The notes beneath the pieces were generated by a model that was given only the letters and a program-made list of their open reading frames with translations, made no database searches and was not told the DNA's origin. From the NCBI GenBank assembly GCA_046563655.1, contig CM102290.1, positions 1 through 64,000 of the forward strand: 64,000 nucleotides of DNA, in the 5' to 3' direction. The DNA is from Yuukianura sp. NJ FZ-2021. Lineage: Eukaryota. The position numbers and the translations under genes are program-made. Below, in pieces: positions 22,092 through 53,755 of this stretch (position 1 is its first letter; the number at the start of each line of letters is the position of its first letter).

Positions 22092-23591
22092 TCAATCCAA
22101 TTTGTGATCACCGGATCCAAGAGTGTTGAGTGGTGAAGTTTTGAGTTTGAGTGTTGACTGTTCTCCTTTGCTCACATGACTGTTTGTCAAGTAGTTGTGG
22201 AGAGAGATCTCTAGCTGCTGGATTCCATCCGTGAAGTGGGAGAGGATGATGAAGAGGAGAGTGCAGAAGATGACCCAGCAGAAAGCATACCAGTTCGTAA
22301 ATGTGACATAAATAGTCCAGAATGTCCACAGAGTCCAAGCCCACAGCACAAAGTACATGGCGTTCCAGGGCTCGTCACGCACTGGGAACGAAGACAGTTT
22401 CCGCTCCATCGCCGGAGCGCAGTAGAATTTCTCGAGTGTTGCTTCCTTTTCTTCCCAGCGCTTCTCACACCAAGTCTTGAGTCCTTCCTCGTCACTTGGC
22501 AAAGTGGACAGATCGTGTCTGCGTCAAGTGAGAAAAATGAAAAGTAAATTAAATGTTTGGATGGAACTTAGGTTTCTTGTCTCACCGTTTGATCAAAAAA
22601 TGAACTTCTTCTGGAATTTTTCCTTGGATAACTTCCGCTCCGCTCTGCGGGAGAGTTTTTGGATAAGCGATCGTCATGTCATACACTGCATTGATTTGAC
22701 AATCTGAAAATGAAGAGCGAGTTGAAAAGTGTAATAACAAGAGACAAGAAGCTGAAAGTGAAAGCATGTTCTTTACTTTGTTTCATTCTGGAGACTAGAA
22801 ATGTGAATCCAGTTGTTCGAGGATGTAGAACGTATTCATATGGACGAAGACATTGCTTCGCTGCGAATGCGTTGCTCTTTGTCTTGGTGTCATCGCAAAG
22901 ATCAGTTCCTTCCGGAAAAATGAGGATCTACAAAGAAGAGGAAAGTTGAATGGTTGTAAAGAAAAGAAGTAAGGTGACAGTAAGAGTTTTTGTGACCTGG
23001 TAGTTGTAGCCCAACTCCTTGAAGTAGTCCAAGGATCTTCCCAGGAGACGTTGATCTTTATCCCAATTGCGATGAATGTACAGAAATCCAGCCAGTTGGA
23101 GACCCCACCCAATTCCTGGAATTTCTTTGACTCCAGACTTGAGAACGAATTTACACCTGGAACAGGAGAATAGGAATGAATTGTTGATATGTCAATCATA
23201 AATATAAAGTAGTTGGTGACCTGTGTCGTGGCGGTTTGGTTGCGTGGAGCAGTGCAGCCCAGAGGAAGAACCAGTCGAGACGATTGCGATGATTCATGAC
23301 TAGGATGGCCCCTTCAGAGGGATCGAGATGTACACACGACAAGCCAGCAGTACTTCCAGCATCGCCTGCCAATCATAAAAATCAAGATAAAAGTGATAAA
23401 TTTGATGGAAGTTGGAAAATACTTACTGCAGGATACATTTCCCAGCAGGCCAGCACAATGTCAGTACACTTCCGAAACCATCTTCGACTGATGACGAGGA
23501 GTGGGACGAGCGGGCAGTAGACGAAGAAGACACTCCACAGGATGCTGGCGTACCAAAGGACAACAAACAGTAGACCACGCACCTTTGTCAT
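22092..23591 (-). pseudogene. LCLAT1: Lysocardiolipin acyltransferase 1-like, full length but frameshifted in exon 2 as assembled
   Basis: NHRNRLDW (HxxxxD), FVLK, IFPEGTD, VLHPRTTGF, YDMTIAYP motifs across 6 exons; frame change near 23328 (VYI/LDPSEG). Confidence 0.75.
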
Positions 23592-35964: not shown

Positions 35965-37711
35965 ATGTCCAGTGTGGCCTCCTAGCCTGTTGTCTCTCCG
36001 CCAGCCAAGAAACGACAGTTGTCGAGTGGAGTGGAAGGATCAGCAGGAAGTGGTGCGGGTGCCCCTTCGCAGCAGTACTACTCGTTCACTGACTCTACTC
36101 AAATGGACACACAAGTCAATGGGGATGGCAATGGGCTTTTGAGGGAAACAGTTAAGGTCAGCATTCCACTCGTTCTCTCTTGTACCTCATCCCATTTTTC
36201 ATTTAGTATTTCAAACTGTTTGTTCCTTTAGGTTTCTGGAGACATGATTCCTGAGCCAATTGAGTCGTTTAGCAAAATGGAACTAAGAGATTCGATTATG
36301 AAGAACTTGGAGAAGATGGGATATAAGGAACCCACACCAACTCAGCAGTACGTCTATCCAATGCTCGCCTCCAATCGGGACGTCATAGTTTGTGCCCAAA
36401 CAGGACTAGGAAAAAGCGTAAGGCTAAGGCAAAACCAGTGATGAGTAGGAACACGTACTGAGTTGTGTTGTTTTTTTATTTCAGTGTGCCTTTCTTCTTG
36501 TTATTTTAAATGAACTCATGTTGCGGGAAAAAATTACGCCAGCCCTGACGATGCCAGCTCAACCAGAGGCAGTCATTCTTGTTCCTACTCGTGATCTTGC
36601 TCTACAAATCCAAAGAGAGAGCAACCTCTTTGCAAACGAATCAATGGTTAAAACACAAGTCATCCATAGCCAAGGACTGTGTTTCGCACAACGCAACCAG
36701 CTAAAGGTGAACATAAACATACACGATTTGAAAACGGATTCTTTTGGCATACTTTTTTTATTACTTTCAACTTTTTTATTGATAGACTGGTTGCAACGTT
36801 CTCGTCGCCACACCAGACAGAATGTTGCAATTTCTGAATGACGGTCACCTCGTAGTCCACTGCGTGGAATTCTTTATTTTGGACGAAGTTGACCGGATGT
36901 TTGAAATGGGACTGATGGGTGACGTCAACAAAGTCGTCGAGAAGTTACCTCCTAAGGTAAAGGATATGAGAAAAAGTTTTCAAGTTTTGTAATAATTCAA
37001 AAAAAAAATTTTTAGAACCATCGTACTTCCGGAATATTCACTGCAACTTTCCGTCAAGAAATTCAAGATTCTGCCAAGAACATTCTCAACAATTACATTT
37101 TTGTCACAGTTGGAACTACGGAAGGGGCTTGCAAAGTAGTGGAACCAGTTTTGGGACAGGTAGATCCGAAGGAAATTAGTTGGTTTCCCATGACCCCTGA
37201 AGCGGCTATGCCACGTCGTCGACCATGTCGTCAGAATATCGGAAGCTCTGAAGTAGCCATGGCAACATTATCTCATAACCTCGGAGCTATGTCTCTTGGT
37301 CATGCGCTGGTCGACGAGGGAGGTTCTGCTGAAAATGCCACTTCTAAGAGCATTTTGATTGTTTCCAAAAGTTCTTCATCTTCAGAGGCTGAAGATGATG
37401 AGGAAGAACAAGATGATCCGCGAGGTGTCTTGCCTGACGATACGAGGATGAGGAACTGGAAACTAGAGCAGATGCTCCGGGACAAAGACCCTAGGGTTAA
37501 GCGTGTACCTAAAGAAAATTTCACGTCAGACGCATGGCTGCGCTTTGATGTGTTGTCCCTTGATGGCAGGGAAATATTGTCTGCCGCCTGCCGGCGCTGC
37601 TATACAGTACACGCACTCAATAATACGGGAACCACAACAAGGTTACTTCATCATAAATGTCCAGCTGAGGACGAAAATAACAATCAGCGCCGCCCCCGTC
37701 GCCGTAATTAG
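35965..37711 (+). CDS. Vasa-like DEAD-box N-terminal (RecA1) domain fused in frame to a BED-type zinc finger; TAG at codon 7, next ATG at 36103
   Basis: Q motif GYKEPTPTQ, AQTGLGKS, PTRDLALQI, ATPDR, LDEVDRM, FTATF, YIFVTVG in phase-0 exons; same frame continues to SDAWLRF..CRRC..TGTTTRLLHHKC; no helicase C domain. Confidence 0.7.
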
Positions 37712-45044: not shown

Positions 45045-45581
45045 GTTGACTACAATGAAACTGTGGACGGGTCCTAGGGAAAAGTGAGTGGTGGACTGAG
45101 GCCCCTTGGTCCTTTTATACTCTCTCTTCAACTTCCCACCTAGACCCACCCCCACCACAATCAAAAGGTGCTCCACGGCCCAGCACCACGGTTTCTCCAC
45201 CACTCTCTCCGCCCCCCACCCCATCCAGCCCCACTCCCTCTCCTTCCTCCGGACATCCTTCCCTCACTCATGTCCAACTTAATTGAGCAACAGGATTTGG
45301 AAACACTCCCATGGACACTCGGAATGAAGATCAACTTGACATGGTTGGAAATTGGGCAAGAGGGGACACTGTTGCGCAGTCCAGTGGAGTGCCCCACTTT
45401 CACTCCATGCTCCCTTTCCCACCAATCACTCATCCACTCCCCTTCCGAGTGAAAGTGAAAGGGAAGAGACATCGTCACAGGTCACAACCTCCGTCCCACC
45501 CTCACTTGGGCCATTCACTCGTTTCTCCTCGGCAATTCCTCAAACCTCGTCACTCAGCTTTCTCTTATCTTTTATTCCTAC

Positions 45582-46766
45582 TTATTTTAAGCCTTGACCT
45601 CCTCCGTCCTTTGACTCCTCCGTCCCTTGGTCCTTTGACTCCTCCGTCCCTTGGTCCTTTGACTTCTCCGCTCCTTCGTCCTTCCGTTCAAAGGGGTCCT
45701 CGTCCTTAAGAGCATGCATGATGCGGAACGTGAGGTTGAGTCTCTCTCCCTTCGTCCCTGGCTCCTTTGGCACCTTAACAAATCCACATGAGTTAGTGGG
45801 ACGGAACAGGAAAGTGGGTCAGAGAGCGGAAAGGCCTTTCCTGTCCCACAATCCTCACTCTCCAAGTGGATGGAACAACAAACACTTAGGAACTGACCAT
45901 TCAAAACATCATTCCAACTCAGGTTGAGATCAAGTGGAAAATGAAAGGGGGGATTACTTCCTAATCAATTAGTTGTTGATTACCTGGTGGAGCCAGTCAG
46001 TTTGTGTGGCTCCTTCCATGATGAGGAGACTTCCGGGGAAGAGGGGGAATCGAATGAAGTTGGTGGAGTGGAGTCCTTTCCGCTTCATCTCAAAAGTACG
46101 CAGAGCCCCTAAACCAACAACCACTCTTAGCACTTTGTTCCTTTCCAAGGAGTGACCTTGACTTACCGAGTGAGACTGATGCGATGGGAGGGTTGGAGCC
46201 AAGGGCAGGGTGGATGTCTGCGTGCCAAGCGTTAGAGTCATGCCCTGTGCGGTACAAGTTGAGAGAGCAGGAGTTGAATTCATAGTTGACCAATTGAACC
46301 AACCTAAGTGGAAGGAACAGAGGTCAAACATTTATCAAGTACTTTCTCACTTCCAACTGACCGGTGGAGGAGATCCAGAATCTCGGGAGTCCAGTCTTCG
46401 CATTTGTTCATCACGAGGCCTGTGTGAGCGTACTCGCATGGACCAAGCCAAGAGATGAGGCGGGGAACGTGGCGCCAAGTGCCAAAGGACGTGAGGATCT
46501 GCTTCTGGTGCCACTTGACTGACTTGCGCAGACTCTTGAACATTTTCTGGAAAGAGATTAGAGTTAGGATAAGAAAGAGTGAGAGTGAAGAGGAGTGTTA
46601 CCATGTTGCCATCTTCGGAGAGGAAGTGGGGCCAGTAGCGGAGGACGGAGAATCCATTTGGAGTTTCACTGAGACACAGTTCTCCTCCCTCCTGCACAAA
46701 CCAGTCAGGGACATTGACACAGGGGGCAGAGTTTGGTGTGATGAGGTCAGACAGGAGAACAGGCGC
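45582..46766 (-). CDS. ALKBH3: ALKBH3-like 2OG-Fe(II) dioxygenase domain (C-terminal module of the PRPF39 fusion)
   Basis: VPRLISWLG, FNSCSLNLYRTGHDSNAWHAD, IASVSLGALRTF, GSLLIMEGATQTDWLHQVPKE, RLNLTFR; all introns GT-AG and phase-compatible. Confidence 0.9.
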
Positions 46767-46839
46767 CTAAAACACATCAAACCACAATTTCATTCGTTCA
46801 ATGTCAAAGGTTAATTTTGTGCGTTGTTGCCAGACTCAC

Positions 46840-49800
46840 CTCGAGACGCAGTTTTTTGGCGAGTGGAAGTCCGTCTGGATCCAGTGAGTTTGCGTAGAAG
46901 GACCCTCTGGGTGGGATGATGTAGAGAGGATTGTTGCGTTTCCGTTGTTTGAGAAGTTCCAAGTCCTCTGGCGTGTCCTTGACAGTTTGTGGGTAGCCCT
47001 TGGCCTCGATGGCTTCGTAGTCCTTGTGTGCGAGGTTGTCTGCCAAGCGAACATCGGGATGGTTCCCACCATAGCCGTAGTTGGGGTGGAGGAACTCGTG
47101 AACTGGAGGGACAGCACCATAAGGAACACTCGGCCCCACGTCAGTCTCACCCACACCCACCACAGACTCAGTGGGAGGGGATTCTTCGTCCAGCGACTCA
47201 AAGAGGATTCTGGATCCTGTCTCAGGAAGTCGAGGAGTGGTGGGAACTGGAAAGGGCTCCAGACTCTTGTCACTCACTTCCCTCCGCTCTCCTCCCACTC
47301 CACTCTCAAAGTCACTCCACCTCTTCGTCTCCTCCTCCTCTTGACGCACAGTTCCCTCCAACTCATACATGTCGTCCACAGCATCTCGATACCTAAAACA
47401 CACAACAATTAAACTCTCAACTGGACATGAACCTCTAACTCACTTGTCCAGTTGACCGTGTTCCTGGAGGAAGTGGACTCTCTTCCTCAAAAAGACCAAT
47501 TTGTGCTTCCTGCTCAGTTTGTCTGCTCTAGCTGCCAACTCCAGAGCGGCATATGCTCCCTTCCTGTCTTGAGGAAATCGGTGGTAACACATCTCATACA
47601 CTTGGGCGTACAGGCGGTGGTTCCCACTGTCCTTCTTAAGGGCTCTCCGCAGAACCTGAAGTCCCTTCTCCGCCAGTCCCATCTCCTGAAACACACAATT
47701 TACACTTCTCACTTCACTCTTCCACAAATTTCAAGGTTGACACAGTTTTTTTGAGTTGAGACAGTTTTTTTTTGAGTTGAGTGAAATAAAAACGTGAATT
47801 ACTGAATGGAGAGTGGCGTACCTTGAAGAGGAAGCGAGCGTATTTCATGGAAACAAGAGAGAAGGCGTCCTTGGATGTGGAAGTAGACAGAAGTTGTTCG
47901 TAGAGCTCCACCACTCGCTCCACCTTCCCTCTCCGCCGTTCCAGATCCACCATTTGGAGTTTGGCCTCCAGGAAAGACGGATGCCACTCCAGCACATGAT
48001 TCAGCAACTCACAAGCTCCATCTACATTCCCTGCATCAAACACAACAATAATTGTTATTATGACTTTTATTATTAAGTAATTATTACTTTTGTCATCTCA
48101 AGTCCACCAATGAAATACTTACCAATGTCCTCCTCGAATCCCGCCCACTGCACACGAATCATGGGTTTGAGTGGGCAGTGGAGGGAGGCTCTTGTGTACA
48201 CGTCTCTCACGACTCGATGCCACCGCAATCGAGGCACACCGAAGGCAGGCACTCGCATCAACCCTACAAAACTTCCATCTGACCCACCCAACCCACCCAA
48301 TTCTTTGTCTGACTTGGCTTTTCCATTGTGCCCCTCCACGTGTCCACTCACTCCGTCCACTTCCCACTCCACTCCTCTCAACAGACTCTCAACCACTCCG
48401 CGGAGGATAGTCTCCTCCTCCTCCTCCGCCTCCTCCACTAAAGTCACCATCCGATTCACTGTCCACTCCACTCCACTCACAATCTCCTCCTCCTCCGCCG
48501 TCTCAGCACACCCAATCCCCACTCCCACTTCACTCCCCTGCACATGCGCACTCCCCTCCACCTCCGGATGACTCCGATGAAACTTCTCCAAGTAACGCCC
48601 GTACTTGACCCAGAATCGCTCATAGTTCGCACAGGCTACGAGACAACGCTCAAAGAGAAGGACGATTCGGTCGTGGTTTCCCTCCGACATCTCAAAGTTG
48701 AGGTACTGTTCCCAGTTCCAGAGCTGTGCTTTGTCCAGTGGCTTCACATGGAAGTACGGTCGTTTGATCTGGAAGGAACAACATTCAAAGTACTTTGTAA
48801 GTCAAATAGAGTCAAGTGAACTGACCTTGTCCTCAAAGTCCCACCGTTTGTCTGCCTCCTGTGCAGTTGCAGAGTGGACTTTCCTCAGTTTGTCCAGCAC
48901 TCTCTCCTTCACAAAGTCCATCAACTTGTCTTCTGGCTTCTTTGTCTTTCTAATCTCCCCTGGCTCAATGTCTGGCTCTGCTTTGTAACGCAAACCCAAC
49001 ACTCTGCATCCCTTCTTCCGCAGACTCTCGTAGTCTTCATGACACAAAATGTCACGCGGATGGTAGTCACGAATGAGCACTCCGCAACTGGAAACACAAA
49101 CAACGTTAAATCCACTCTGAGGAAACACTAAAGTTAAAGTGTCTTACTTGTCCCAGTGTCGGTTGTAGAGGCGGGTGGGAACTTGGAGGAGTTGCTTGTA
49201 CAGCACAAACACGTTCCTTGTCTTGCCCAAACTCATTTCCCACTGGATGAACGATTCCCAAAGAGTGTCTGATCGGAACCCCATCCCACACCTCCGTAGT
49301 CCCAACTCATACTGCCTAACAAAACAAATTAAATGAGTGACCAATCAATGGAACATTGTGGTTTTTGACTTTGTTCAAAGTGTTGTCTTACTGCCTCATC
49401 AGCATTTCAAAGTCCTTGTGATGAGTGTGAATCTCTGCGAAGAGATGGAGGTGGGACATCCACAGATCAACTGACAATGGATTAAACTCCAGTCCTCTCT
49501 CCAGGATCCTCAGAGCCCTGTGTCCAAAACTAACATGTCAACTACTCAACAACTTTCAACCATTATGGCCACACCTGTCAAAACAAACTTCTCAAAATCT
49601 TTATTTTAACATCTTCAAAATTCCTCAACGAAGTTCTGAAAAAGTTCTCAAAAGTGGCAAAAAAGCAATTCGAAAATCATAAAAACAACTAAATAACAAT
49701 AAAAGATTTGTTTGTGTTATTGGAAAAATAGTTAAGGTAACCTTAAATTTCGTCCCTAAACGCCAGTGTTGCTGGATGGATAAAATATTTCTTCCACCTA

Positions 49801-52399
49801 CAGCAAAATACGTGCAAGTATCCACTTATATCCATTTTATCCAGCCATTTCTTCCGGATAAAACCGGATGAAATATTTTATCCACCAGATATCCACTGGA
49901 CGAAACGTCAAAAAAGTGAATATCCAGCAACACTGCTAAACACTGCTTTAGTGCAATCATATCCGCCATATTCGTAACCATTCAACGGTTACCGGCTTAC
50001 CGTGCGTAGCATATTCTTAAGTTACGTCTTAATCCAGCCCGATCAATACATGAAGGCACAAAAATGACGTTAATATGAAAGAAACAGGTTTTAAAATTTG
50101 AACTGAATGCTTCACTTCACCGTTTTGAAATTAAAATTAACAAATTGTAAAAAACTAACAAAAAATCAGGAAATTTGTAGCCAAATTGAATTTTTTGACC
50201 CAAATATCCTGTTTATGTGACTTTCGTTAAAAAAAGAGGGAAAAAGTAGTGATGCAACGAGTACGGAGTTGCGAAGTACAATTACTGGCGGGTACAGACG
50301 ACTTCTCTACCCGCGAGTAGCATTACTCGCGCGAGTAATCGCGAGTACAACATGGTCAAACTGAATGCGCACTCACGTGTATATAACGACAGTTTGTCGA
50401 CACGTTCCAATCCCTTTAAAGTTAAGAATCAATAACAAAGGCCATTTCTAGGCTAATGTGAGTATGCTGAACACGATTCTGAAAGAATTTTTCAAAAAAA
50501 CCCAACCTAACCTAACCTAAGCTAACCTAAAATCAGGAAACCGAAAAAAAGACAGTTTTTGAAAAATTCTTTCAGAATCGTGTTCAGCATACTCAAATTA
50601 GCCTAGAAACCGATTTTCATGCAATTCGGAGAAAAAAATTTTTTTTCAAAATTTTGAAAAAAAAAATTCCGAAATTTTTTAGAGCGAAATTGACTGTTAT
50701 GCTAAACTGCCTAGAACAAAGAGGGATGAGGATCCTATTAAGACTTGGGCACAAATTCATTCTTCTTTTTCCACACTCAGCGTCGCTGCAAAAAAATTTC
50801 TGTCAGCGCCAGCGAGCTCAATTAGCAGTGAAAGGTTATTCTCAGAGAAAGGAACAATCTACGAAGACAAAAGGAATCGACTTCTGCCTATTCGTGGAGA
50901 AACCTTAGCTTTTTTGCATAACAATTAAGGATTTTGAAGAAAATTGAAAAATAAAGTTGCTGTTGGTTTAAAGCAAGTACTTTCCTGGTACTCGTTGAAT
51001 TTTTTGCGAGTGCGAAGTACTGGAGTTGCGAAGTACGAGTATTAGCGATTACTCGTACTCGCATCTACTCGCACGAAGTAACGACGTAGTACTTCGTACC
51101 CGTTGCATCACTAGGAAAAAGCATTTCTATAATGAAAAAAGTTTTTAAAACTTTGTAAAGATTTTAAAACTTATTAAAGACAAATAAGTGACCGAAAAGA
51201 TTCGTAAGATTTATGTTTGTTTTCGCAGGTCTGACCTGATTATGACACTGACCTGTGCAAGTAGTTGTGTCCTTTCTCAACGTCACTGTATCTCTTCCAG
51301 TAGGCAAAGCAGTAGGGGAACAAAGGCAGAAAGGCACTGTACACTCTCCGAATTTCCTCCAAAACACCCTGTTACAAAAAACACTCATTTCAACCAAATC
51401 CAATTCTATAAATAAGAAGTATTTGATTGTTTGAGAGAGTACCGTGGATTCTGCAAAAGTGATGAGGAATGACCATCGGTTGAAGTCATATGGATTCACT
51501 TGGACATAGTCCCAGTACGTAGTGAGGTTGGGCTGTTGCAGAGTGGACGGTCCAGTGACGGTGGAGGAAGGAATGACTTCGAGTGGAAGTGGGTCATACA
51601 CCGCCTCCTCCTCAGACCCACCCGCCTTGTCCAGCGCCTTCTTCCTCAATTCATACGCTCGTTTCGCCCGCTGTGCTCGACGCGCAATGTCCACAATGGA
51701 AGGACTTGACTCGGACACTTCGGAGGGAACAGTTGGCAAACTGAACTGGAGGGGTTCGTTTCCATAGGGATCCGAAGACACAGAGTAGACGTACTGCGTC
51801 GGGTAGTTCTTGTAGAACTCTGCAATGGACTCTGATACTGAATCCACCTCCGTCTCTCCACTCTCCATAGCAACACATCTCTCTTCCGCATCACTTGATG
51901 CTCTGACCTCATTCGGTTCATTGGACGGACGTGCAATGCCCAGACTTTCATAGAACTTGGCTGTTTCCGGGTCATCTTTTTCCTGTGGCTTCTGTGGTTT
52001 CGGTGACTCTGGTCTGTCGTCCACAATGTCATTTCCACGTAAGGGCTTCCCCTTCGCACCACCAATCTGCCTCACAAGTTCTGCCACACTCACATCCGTG
52101 TCAGCTGTTTCAGTGGCCACTTCATGTCCAGCAGGAGTTTCGTTTTCAGCGTTCTCAGTGTCCCTGTCTCCCGAGCTCTCTTCTTCTGTCTTCTTGACAT
52201 CAGTCTCTTCTGTCTGTTTGGAGAGGGCAGAGGCAGAGATGGCGTATCCGTAGTTGGGGGCCAGGATTAAACCGCACTCTCTGCTTCTTGCATCCACAGT
52301 GCTCAAGAGTCCACTCTCCTGCGATGGCTGCACAAAGGACTCTGACAAGTGGACCACTCCTTGGACAGCGAGCAATGGTTTAGCCTTCCGTTTCCCCAT
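46840..52399 (-). CDS. PRPF39: Pre-mRNA processing factor 39 (HAT repeats) with long acidic N-terminus; splices into the ALKBH3-like exons
   Basis: [89 protein letters not shown]. Confidence 0.92.
49764..49935. mobile_element. hAT-type MITE in PRPF39 intron
   Basis: TIR CAGTGTTGCTGGAT/ATCCAGCAACACTG; 8-bp TSD CTAAACGC/CTAAACAC. Confidence 0.85.
50247..51113 (+). mobile_element. Non-autonomous hAT transposon with transposase dimerisation-domain remnant
   Basis: TIR TAGTGATGCAACG..CGTTGCATCACTA; perfect [36 protein letters not shown] at ~50780-50928. Confidence 0.9.
50445..50609. repeat. ~50-bp inverted repeat enclosing interstitial (AACCT)~5
   Basis: TTTCTAGGCTAAT..GAATTTTTCAAAAA and its reverse complement flank AACCTAACCTAACCTAAGCTAACCTAA. 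Confidence 0.8.
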
Positions 52400-53755
52400 C
52401 ACCACCTAAACATAAAGAACCAAAGTTAGTACCAAAGGACTCAGCACTAAAAAGTTAACTACCTCTACTTACTTTCACAGGTTAATCAACACGAATTTGA
52501 CACGAACTGTTAATGGGTCATCTTAAATCAGCAGTCAACACAACAACACAACTGATTCACTTTAAAATTGTACTGTACCCGAATGAGGGGCTGGCTAAAC
52601 GACGGTTCTCGGATTCCTCAGATTTGTATGAGGGGTTCACCCTCTCAATCCGTCGACTAACAGCGAACGTTTAGTAAAAAAAATGTAGCAAACGTAGTCA
52701 TCAAAGGTAGGAAAAGAACTTACAATAAAAAAAAACGTTTTTGGCAGTGTTTCTGGGTTCTTAAACATCCAGTGGCTTCATTGCCACTTCCACTGGATAT
52801 CCAGTGGAAGAAATGGCTTCCTACTGGACGGTGGATGGAAGAAATCCGCTGAGTTTAAAAACTCAGCGCGGATTTCAAATAAGTAAAAATTTAATACTAT
52901 GAAATACTTTAATTAACTATTTAACCCGCTTTTCCCTAGGTGGTTTTGTTATTTGAACCTACGTTAGTGCAATTTGTAACTGCTTTTGTAGTGTTTCTCA
53001 TTTCTCTTAACCTAACCTTTACTTTAAAAATTTAAAAATTCCAATTTTTCCTAGTGTAGCAACATCTTTATTTTAAAAATTTTAAAATTCCATTTTTTCA
53101 AGTGTAGAACCTACTTTACTTGAAAAATTTATTAATTCCAATTTTTCCAAGTGTAAAGCCACCTTTACTTTAAAAATTCAAATTTTTCCGACTGTAGCAA
53201 CACCTTTACCTTAAAAATTGTAAAATTCCAACTGTCCACGGGTGTAGAACCACCTTTACTTTAAAAATTTAAAAATTCCATTTTTCCCAAGTGTAGAGCA
53301 ACCTTTAGTTTAAAAATTCCAATTTTTCCGACTTAGCCACACCTTTACTTTAAAATTCCAATTTTTCCGACTGTAGCCACATCTTTTCTTTAAAAATTTA
53401 AAAATTTGAATTTTTCCGAGTGTAGAACCACCCTTACTTTAAAAATTTAAAAATTCCATTTTTTCCGTGTAGAGTCACCTTTACTTTAAAAATTCCAATT
53501 TTTCCAAATGTAGCAACATCTTTACTTTAGAAATTTTGAAATTCCAGCTTTTCAGAATATAAGACCATCCTTACTTTAAAAATATTAAAATCCCAATTTT
53601 TTTGAGTGTAGCAACACTTTACTTTAAAAATTAAAAACTCCCAATTTTTCCGAGTCTAGCAATACCTTTACTTTAAAAATTTACGAAATTCCAATTTTTT
53701 CGAGTGTGGCAAGACCTTTACTTTAAAAATTTAAAAAATTCCAATTTTTCCGAGT

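Follow-up and report, generated by a model that had tools for sequence, protein, structure and literature searches.

The stretch of DNA considered here, the first 64,000 nucleotides (nt) of contig CM102290.1 from Yuukianura sp. NJ FZ-2021 (GenBank assembly GCA_046563655.1; hereafter the window), carries on its minus strand, at 52399..45582, a locus that is best explained, with good confidence, as a single 14-exon gene in which the scaffold of the splicing factor PRPF39 is followed by a conserved linker and a dioxygenase domain of the ALKBH3 type, the whole having a proposed role linked to the U1 small nuclear ribonucleoprotein (snRNP). The gene structure itself is close to certain, and one in-frame PRPF39–ALKBH3 gene is strongly supported by the reading frame and by the sequences of relatives. 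The mechanism proposed for it, a U1-tethered enzyme that would remove N1-methyladenine (m1A) and N3-methylcytosine (m3C), has perhaps a little less than an even chance of being right.

The exon model was built by tblastn with related proteins as a guide, after which the splice sites were read directly on the minus strand, giving 14 exons with GT-AG introns throughout and a coding sequence of 4,083 nt (1,360 codons) without internal stops. The PRPF39-homologous part and the ALKBH3 part meet between exons 9 and 10, at residue 1093|1094 of the model: exon 9 ends CTG CGT CTC GAG|GTGAGT at 46840 in phase 0 (...KKLRLE in the protein), and exon 10 opens GCG CCT at 46766, after an intron of only 73 nt (46767..46839, GTGAGT...TTTTAG). 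From there exons 10 to 14 stay open for 804 nt (267 codons without an internal stop) across introns of 55, 58, 58 and 210 nt, all of them GT-AG. A sequence-only reading of the window had already placed the phase-0 end of the PRPF39-linked exon, the 73-nt intron with its TTTTAG acceptor and four further phase-compatible introns leading to the TAA at 45582 at these same positions, and direct reading of the strand agreed with it on each. When the window model was compared by BLASTP with the protein P0159 of Tigriopus, a single segment spanning residues 5-1319 was returned with no gap at the junction, and the alignments to P0004 and to P0163 of Eurytemora were likewise free of gaps at the junction itself. 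Since the named fused proteins are collinear with the window over the whole span, the fusion is not a product of chance.

The DNA and transcripts of relatives bear directly on the same point. Metagenome contigs were searched with aligned AlkB regions, which yielded 34 loci, and ten long open reading frames (ORFs) from these were tested against Pfam. Eight of the ten (L003, L005, L008, L009, L011, L014, L015 and L016; 1,437-1,608 residues) encode HAT_PRP39_N, HAT_PRP39_C and 2OG-FeII_Oxy_2 without interruption, while the other two are L002, with the HAT_C and 2OG domains, and L022, whose frame stops within the AlkB domain. At L002 and L033 the junction is crossed in one frame and without an intron. 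As given in Table 1 of PMC4664967, the spliced leader of calanoid copepods is 46 nt long, and 32 nt matching its 3′ part open L003:1-32, L008:1-32, L011:2-33 and L022:1-32; by pattern search the leader was present in these 4 of the 34 loci, always at the extreme 5′ end. Its presence marks L003, L008 and L011 as mature, trans-spliced mRNAs for the complete fusion protein, and all four loci as trans-spliced and calanoid in origin; L008 also has a short run of A at its 3′ end. Contigs lacking the leader are cDNA or intron-poor genomic DNA, and their frames are uninterrupted in either case. The copepod leader had no match in the window when up to three mismatches were allowed.

A genomic contig of another relative, L019, has an intron at the same codon boundary, also in phase 0 (...ELE|GTTTGT, 67 nt, AG|GCT), and continues after it with the same 16 residues and then the [VI]NVP[ED]W motif. 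In L001, the closest relative for which DNA was found, the equivalent of exon 10 apparently holds an extra intron of ~80 nt (73-152; tblastn segments 1-72 and 153-224), from which it follows that intron positions vary among near relatives. The contention of the sequence-only reading that PRPF39 and ALKBH3 form one in-frame gene was thus upheld by the uninterrupted fused ORFs of relatives, their leader-capped mRNAs, the L019 intron and the selection described below.

The obvious objection is that two adjacent but independent genes are present, PRPF39 ending in or just past exon 9 and ALKBH3 having a promoter of its own, so that the fusion would be a read-through or an artefact of prediction. 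In human and mouse PRPF39 and ALKBH3 are indeed separate genes, which speaks for this arrangement, as does an in-frame stop (46806..46804) within the 73-nt intron. On the other side, a mere 73 nt lie between exons 9 and 10, and exon 10 (46602..46766), which supplies the ALKBH3 core with its first strands (..VNVPDWF..GGELCLSE..), has no in-frame ATG before its last codon. Through the relative P0004, exon 10 matches residues 27-58 of the human ALKBH3 chain, a structured part of the crystallised protein; lacking an ATG and yet encoding part of the folded core, it cannot start a gene. A product starting at the ATG of exon 11 would in turn miss part of that core: P0002, an ORF called from its first available ATG, at the start of exon 11, matches the ALKBH3 chain only from residue 59. 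The intron-free junction in the fused ORFs L002, L033 and L014, the fused ORFs on spliced-leader-capped mRNAs of relatives and the conservation of the linker also stand against two genes. For the relatives this arrangement is already contradicted, and overall it is highly improbable. P0002 and P0003 were considered as stand-alone ALKBH3 proteins and rejected, both being first-ATG ORF calls, with P0003 running through introns.

The single fused gene is also found among database proteins. A query with the tail exon retrieved P0001, the C-terminal half of a PRPF39 that is 57% identical, ends ...KRLKLE and continues for 12 codons into what seems to be the equivalent junction intron. A query with exon 11 retrieved P0004, a protein of 811 residues encoded by a single ORF on L002, with both HAT_PRP39_C and PF13532, whose residue 502 begins exactly at window position 46766 by tblastn. 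An exhaustive HMMER search with P0004 then gave the long fused proteins P0005 (1,540 residues), P0006 (943), P0007 (1,723) and P0010 (1,235); of 22 proteins scanned, a PRP39 HAT family together with PF13532 was present in six (P0004, P0005, P0006, P0007, P0010 and the partial P0008). When the AlkB region of P0006 served as query in a search restricted by length, 41 proteins were retrieved, 35 of them with PF13532 and a PRP39 HAT family; this search depends on shared words, and the lack of a named taxon in it is therefore not evidence. Six of the fused rows bear names, as RefSeq or UniRef models of five crustacean species, namely Pollicipes pollicipes (“pre-mRNA-processing factor 39-like”, P0006 and P0154), Amphibalanus amphitrite (LOC122382017, P0155), Tigriopus californicus (LOC131886822, P0159), Eurytemora carolleeae (LOC111700016, P0163) and Lepeophtheirus salmonis (“PRPF39”, P0171), and none of the names mentions the AlkB domain. 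These models have the same order of HAT_PRP39_N, HAT_PRP39_C and 2OG-FeII_Oxy_2 as the window and are collinear with it; their AlkB domains are 53-63% identical to that of the window, and the barnacle proteins differ in lacking the canonical HxD.

The sequence-only reading had known of no description of the architecture, which holds in part. No paper describing a PRPF39–ALKBH3 fusion was found by a full-text literature search, whose coverage leaves supplements and subscription journals outside, and in the paper on PRPF39 evolution (PMC6582350) the words AlkB, arthropod, crustacea and fused do not occur; the automated RefSeq models of the five crustaceans nevertheless show the fusion, uncommented. 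Two of the relatives have additional domains: precomputed Pfam annotation of the Lepeophtheirus protein P0171 includes an extra PF05485, and the fused ORF at L016:83-4906 has an N-terminal SAP domain (PF02037, E 9.3e-11), from which the N-terminal region seems to gain further nucleic-acid-binding modules in some lineages.

Within the window the gene begins with the ATG at 52399 in exon 1 (51443..52399; this and all further exons on the minus strand), which encodes an acidic N-terminal region and the first repeats of HAT_PRP39_N and ends at the donor GTACTC. The Pfam match to HAT_PRP39_N is weak in this exon, and its N-terminus is matched in tblastn by residues 19-65 of P0163 and 7-100 of P0155. 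HAT_PRP39_N continues through exon 2 (51253..51368, matched by residues 429-468 of P0163 in tblastn), exon 3 (49392..49517, acceptor at 49518) and exon 4 (49148..49315). A second in-frame acceptor for exon 3 lies 12 nt upstream (49530); its spacing disagrees with the homologues, and 49518 was preferred. Exon 5 (48826..49087) forms a helical linker separating the two HAT domains; HAT_PRP39_C is encoded by exon 6 (48123..48768), along with an acidic low-complexity insert common to relatives, and by exon 7 (47822..48030); and the final HAT repeats lie in exon 8 (47444..47685), which matches P0001 and P0004 in tblastn. Both HAT-repeat domains of PRPF39 were recognized by Pfam, the N-terminal one (PF23240) in exon 4 (E 1.1e-15, 58.6 bits against a cut-off of 27.7) and exon 3 (E 5.8e-5), and the C-terminal one (PF23241) in exon 6 (E 1.5e-37, 129.2 bits against a cut-off of 33). 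Exon 9 (46840..47392) holds the end of the PRPF39 homology and the conserved linker.

This linker of ~160 residues separates the HAT domain from the AlkB core and includes blocks (..VPP/APTWE.., YGYG, ..EYE.LE..GY.., YI.PP and ..PC[VI]NVP[ED]W) that are common to the window, P0004 and the copepod proteins, and in part to P0005. The blocks YGYG, ..EYE.LE..GY.. and YI.PP, encoded by exon 9 (46840-47140, minus strand), match no Pfam family and could be docking motifs.

The AlkB part follows in exons 10 to 14. After exon 10 the ALKBH3 core continues in exon 11 (46362..46546); exon 12 (46167..46303) encodes the 2-oxoglutarate (2OG)-binding NLYR motif and the HxD iron ligands, exon 13 (45984..46108) the second iron-binding His, and exon 14 (45582..45773) the RLNLTFR motif (45743..45723), a repetitive acidic and basic tail and the TAA at 45584..45582. 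The Fe(II) triad HxD...H is present as WHAD (H 46224..46222, D 46218..46216) and DWLHQ (His 45989..45987), which correspond, by way of P0004 and P0002, to WHSD and DWQHR of human ALKBH3; the 2OG-binding RxxxxxR (RLNLTFR) and N.Y (NLYR) motifs are present as well. The sequence-only reading had described WHAD, WLHQ and RLNLTFR as intact, and all three were found where it had read them. Exons 12 (E 2.9e-6) and 13 (E 4.3e-4) match PF13532 (2OG-FeII_Oxy_2), and the fold is further supported through relatives, in that P0004, 60% identical to the window domain, scores 102.9 bits and P0002, 90% identical to it, matches ALKBH3 structures at E 3.9e-37. With P0004 and P0002 as queries, E values were ~4e-37 to 5e-39 for ALKBH3 chains as against ~1e-18 to 1e-19 for ALKBH2, and by this sequence comparison the domain is of the ALKBH3 type, nearer to ALKBH3 than to ALKBH2. 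After the AlkB core, at ~45600-45700 on the minus strand, the exon 14 tail is a near-perfect repeat of ..EESKDQGT.. units without counterpart in relatives, whose tails differ.

The AlkB exons are under constraint. Over 222 codons compared between the window and L001, the nonsynonymous and synonymous differences per site (pN and pS) were 0.064 and 0.77, which indicates strong purifying selection; these proportions are given in place of dN/dS because the synonymous sites are saturated. A tree of 138 AlkB domains was calculated by an IQ-TREE quick search under LG+G4, leaving out rows with a BLASTP segment to the window domain of <150 residues as well as P0031 and P0088, which are PRPF39 only. The fused family was recovered as one group of 20 rows (19 labelled as fused-family and the fragment P0025) with a Shimodaira–Hasegawa-like approximate likelihood-ratio (SH-aLRT) support of 99, and such a single clade fits a single origin of the fusion. 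In this tree the window falls beside P0002 and P0004 and outside the groups of copepods and of barnacles, and its AlkB domain is 59-63% identical to those of the copepod proteins and 53-55% identical to those of the barnacles. By its shared frame, linker and tree position the window sequence is placed as a member of a crustacean PRPF39–ALKBH3 fusion clade. On this sequence evidence the fusion is old, the clade spanning copepods, barnacles and the lineage of the present organism.

A comparison with known systems shows what the fusion adds to each of its parts. Both HAT domains, PF23240 and PF23241, are shared with metazoan PRPF39 (mouse structure 6G70) and with the yeast Prp39/Prp42 of the U1 snRNP, and P0004 matches residues 406-634 of 6G70 at E 9.6e-20. 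Mouse PRPF39 is described in PMC6582350 as ending with ~60 disordered residues after the HAT C-terminal domain. In the window protein, by contrast, that domain is followed by the conserved linker and a whole ALKBH3 domain; the N-terminus is extended by a long acidic stretch, and the HAT C-terminal domain itself carries an insert. Human ALKBH3 (PDB 2IUW, 8JNR, 8JNK and 9NCZ) is the best solved match of the dioxygenase part (E 4.6e-39 with P0004, E 3.9e-37 with P0002), sharing the HxD...H, RxxxxxR and NLYR motifs, with a structural match in the Atlas at TM 0.73 by target. The human protein, of ~286 residues, is a stand-alone enzyme that meets spliceosome-linked factors non-covalently, whereas here the domain forms the C-terminal end of a splicing factor. 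ALKBH3-like or AlkB domains are joined to other partners elsewhere: in the TrmK–AlkB fusion of green algae an ALKBH3-like domain is likewise combined with a nucleic-acid module, though with a different partner and no spliceosome component, and in P0023 (1,150 residues, with a 3′-5′ exonuclease, PF01612) and P0060 (746 residues, with an OTU protease and CCCH zinc fingers), two further proteins of the 22 scanned, the partner of the AlkB domain is not spliceosomal.

ALKBH3 acts on single-stranded DNA and RNA, which it frees of m1A and m3C. In the mechanism proposed here, in line with the spliceosome-tethered demethylase suggested by the sequence-only reading, the PRPF39 part would place the dioxygenase domain at the complex that recognizes the 5′ splice site on nascent transcripts, where the domain would oxidatively remove N1-methyladenine and N3-methylcytosine, modifications that would block the Watson–Crick pairing needed for recognition of the 5′ splice site by U1. 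Its targets might be single-stranded pre-mRNA, the 5′ end of U1 snRNA or the exposed non-template DNA, and a dimer of PRPF39 would bring two dealkylase domains to each 5′ splice site. According to PMC6582350 and PMC9808567, PRPF39 of mouse and human is a homodimer that is needed for splicing and recruits the U1 snRNP to weak 5′ splice sites; homodimerisation and binding to the U1 snRNP (U1C) are assumed by homology for the window protein. A U1-tethered function would fit data on human cells, where, as described in bioRxiv 10.1101/2020.08.28.271874, alkylation of RNA brings ALKBH3–ASCC to nuclear speckles by way of RNF113A, a spliceosome-associated E3 ligase. Both systems tie ALKBH3 to spliceosome-associated machinery, but in the human one the tie is damage-induced and made through ubiquitin signalling and the ASCC helicase complex, whereas in the present gene it is covalent and constitutive, through fusion with a factor of the U1 snRNP.

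The more far-reaching proposition, that a large crustacean clade has built an active m1A/m3C dealkylase permanently into the U1 snRNP and made the removal of pairing-blocking methyl groups from nascent pre-mRNA, or from U1 snRNA itself, integral to 5′ splice-site recognition, is offered tentatively and is more doubtful than not. Both halves of the protein belong to well-studied families. A conserved gene fusion is one of the best guides to functional partnership, and this one points from ALKBH3, whose physiological RNA substrates and recruitment are debated, to the U1 snRNP and 5′ splice-site recognition; its retention under purifying selection in copepods and barnacles, which include some of the most abundant marine animals, suggests a direct link, one that is testable in culturable species such as Tigriopus. 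Were the proposition true, the fusion would serve as a “Rosetta stone”, the human link between ALKBH3 and the spliceosome reflecting an ancient direct partnership with the early spliceosome, and it would provide a natural system for genetic tests of co-transcriptional RNA repair.

Several observations weigh against a U1-tethered RNA dealkylase encoded by a single fused gene. At the level of the gene, the 46840>46766 junction is read in this organism from its genomic sequence and from relatives, and the AlkB exons, taken singly, reach 28.1 and 21.0 bits, under the Pfam gathering cut-off of 31.2, which is attributed to their short length; PRPF39 alone may also be made from transcripts that keep the intron, and the genome may contain a second, separate gene for PRPF39 or ALKBH3. 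At the level of function, the enzyme activity, the U1 association and the substrate are predictions for every fused protein, and RNA need not be the substrate, since ALKBH3 repairs single-stranded DNA too. Lastly, of 30 fused-family rows 24, among them all the named copepods, have kept the HxD...H and RxxxxxR residues, as has the window, while in the other six, which include both barnacles, the HxD is degenerate: WHTH and WHVH in the barnacles (P0006 and P0155), WTSE in P0005, WSSH in P0007, where the second His is lost as well, WHWE in P0010 and WCSL in P0013. This loss of iron ligands implies that catalysis is not what maintains the fusion everywhere. It suggests that P0006, P0155, P0005, P0007, P0010 and P0013 represent pseudo-enzyme lineages, in which the AlkB domain probably persists as a non-catalytic nucleic-acid-binding module; iron-ligand loss with the domain kept amounts to a natural separation-of-function series.

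One could accept the fusion as real and still deny it a part in U1-tethered RNA repair, the AlkB domain being either a non-catalytic nucleic-acid-binding module of PRPF39 or an enzyme for the repair of single-stranded DNA at transcribed loci, with PRPF39 merely carrying it into the nucleus or to chromatin. The persistence of domain and fusion in the six rows whose HxD is degenerate is in keeping with this, as is the description, in the RNF113A work, of human ALKBH3–ASCC as a DNA repair complex that is recruited through RNA damage. All catalytic and 2OG-binding residues are, however, kept in the window lineage and in every named copepod, and the strong purifying selection is what would be expected for an active enzyme. 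A role outside RNA repair is considered unlikely on balance.

A further variant, compatible with the U1-linked fused gene favored here, is that two products are made, the fused protein and a PRPF39-only isoform that would arise by retention of the 73-nt intron or by alternative polyadenylation. Reading through the intron adds 11 codons before the TGA at 46806..46804, the stop that the sequence-only reading had predicted for the retained intron. The closeness of this TGA to the donor would fit a second product, as would the ORF of P0001, which stops 12 codons into the equivalent intron, and the spliced-leader-capped L022, which stops in the AlkB domain and suggests incompletely spliced forms in a copepod. 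Intronic stops are the rule, however, and uninformative, and AATAAA is absent from the 73-nt intron. Production of both forms is regarded as rather unlikely. An AATAAA does lie at 45571..45576 on the minus strand, 6 nt past the stop codon of exon 14, and probably serves the fused gene as its poly(A) signal.

The fused proteins match no other part of the 64-kb window by tblastn, and an Rfam scan of the window gave nothing at the gathering score. Intron 2 of the gene (1,735 nt) contains, on the opposite strand at 50683..50928 (+), a remnant of a hAT transposase C-terminal dimerisation domain (PF05699, E 7e-15), a passenger that lies outside the protein. Just upstream of the 5′ end of the gene, at 52900-53530, short ORFs on both strands share recurring peptide words (..FKVKV.., ..TFTLKI..), which suggests a tandem or interspersed repeat. 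Fragments of other genes of the window were seen as an ORF at 22092-22523 on the minus strand, matching Acyltransf_C (E 1.3e-10), and an ORF at 36449-36841 on the plus strand, with a weak match to the DEAD helicase family (E 9.8e-4).

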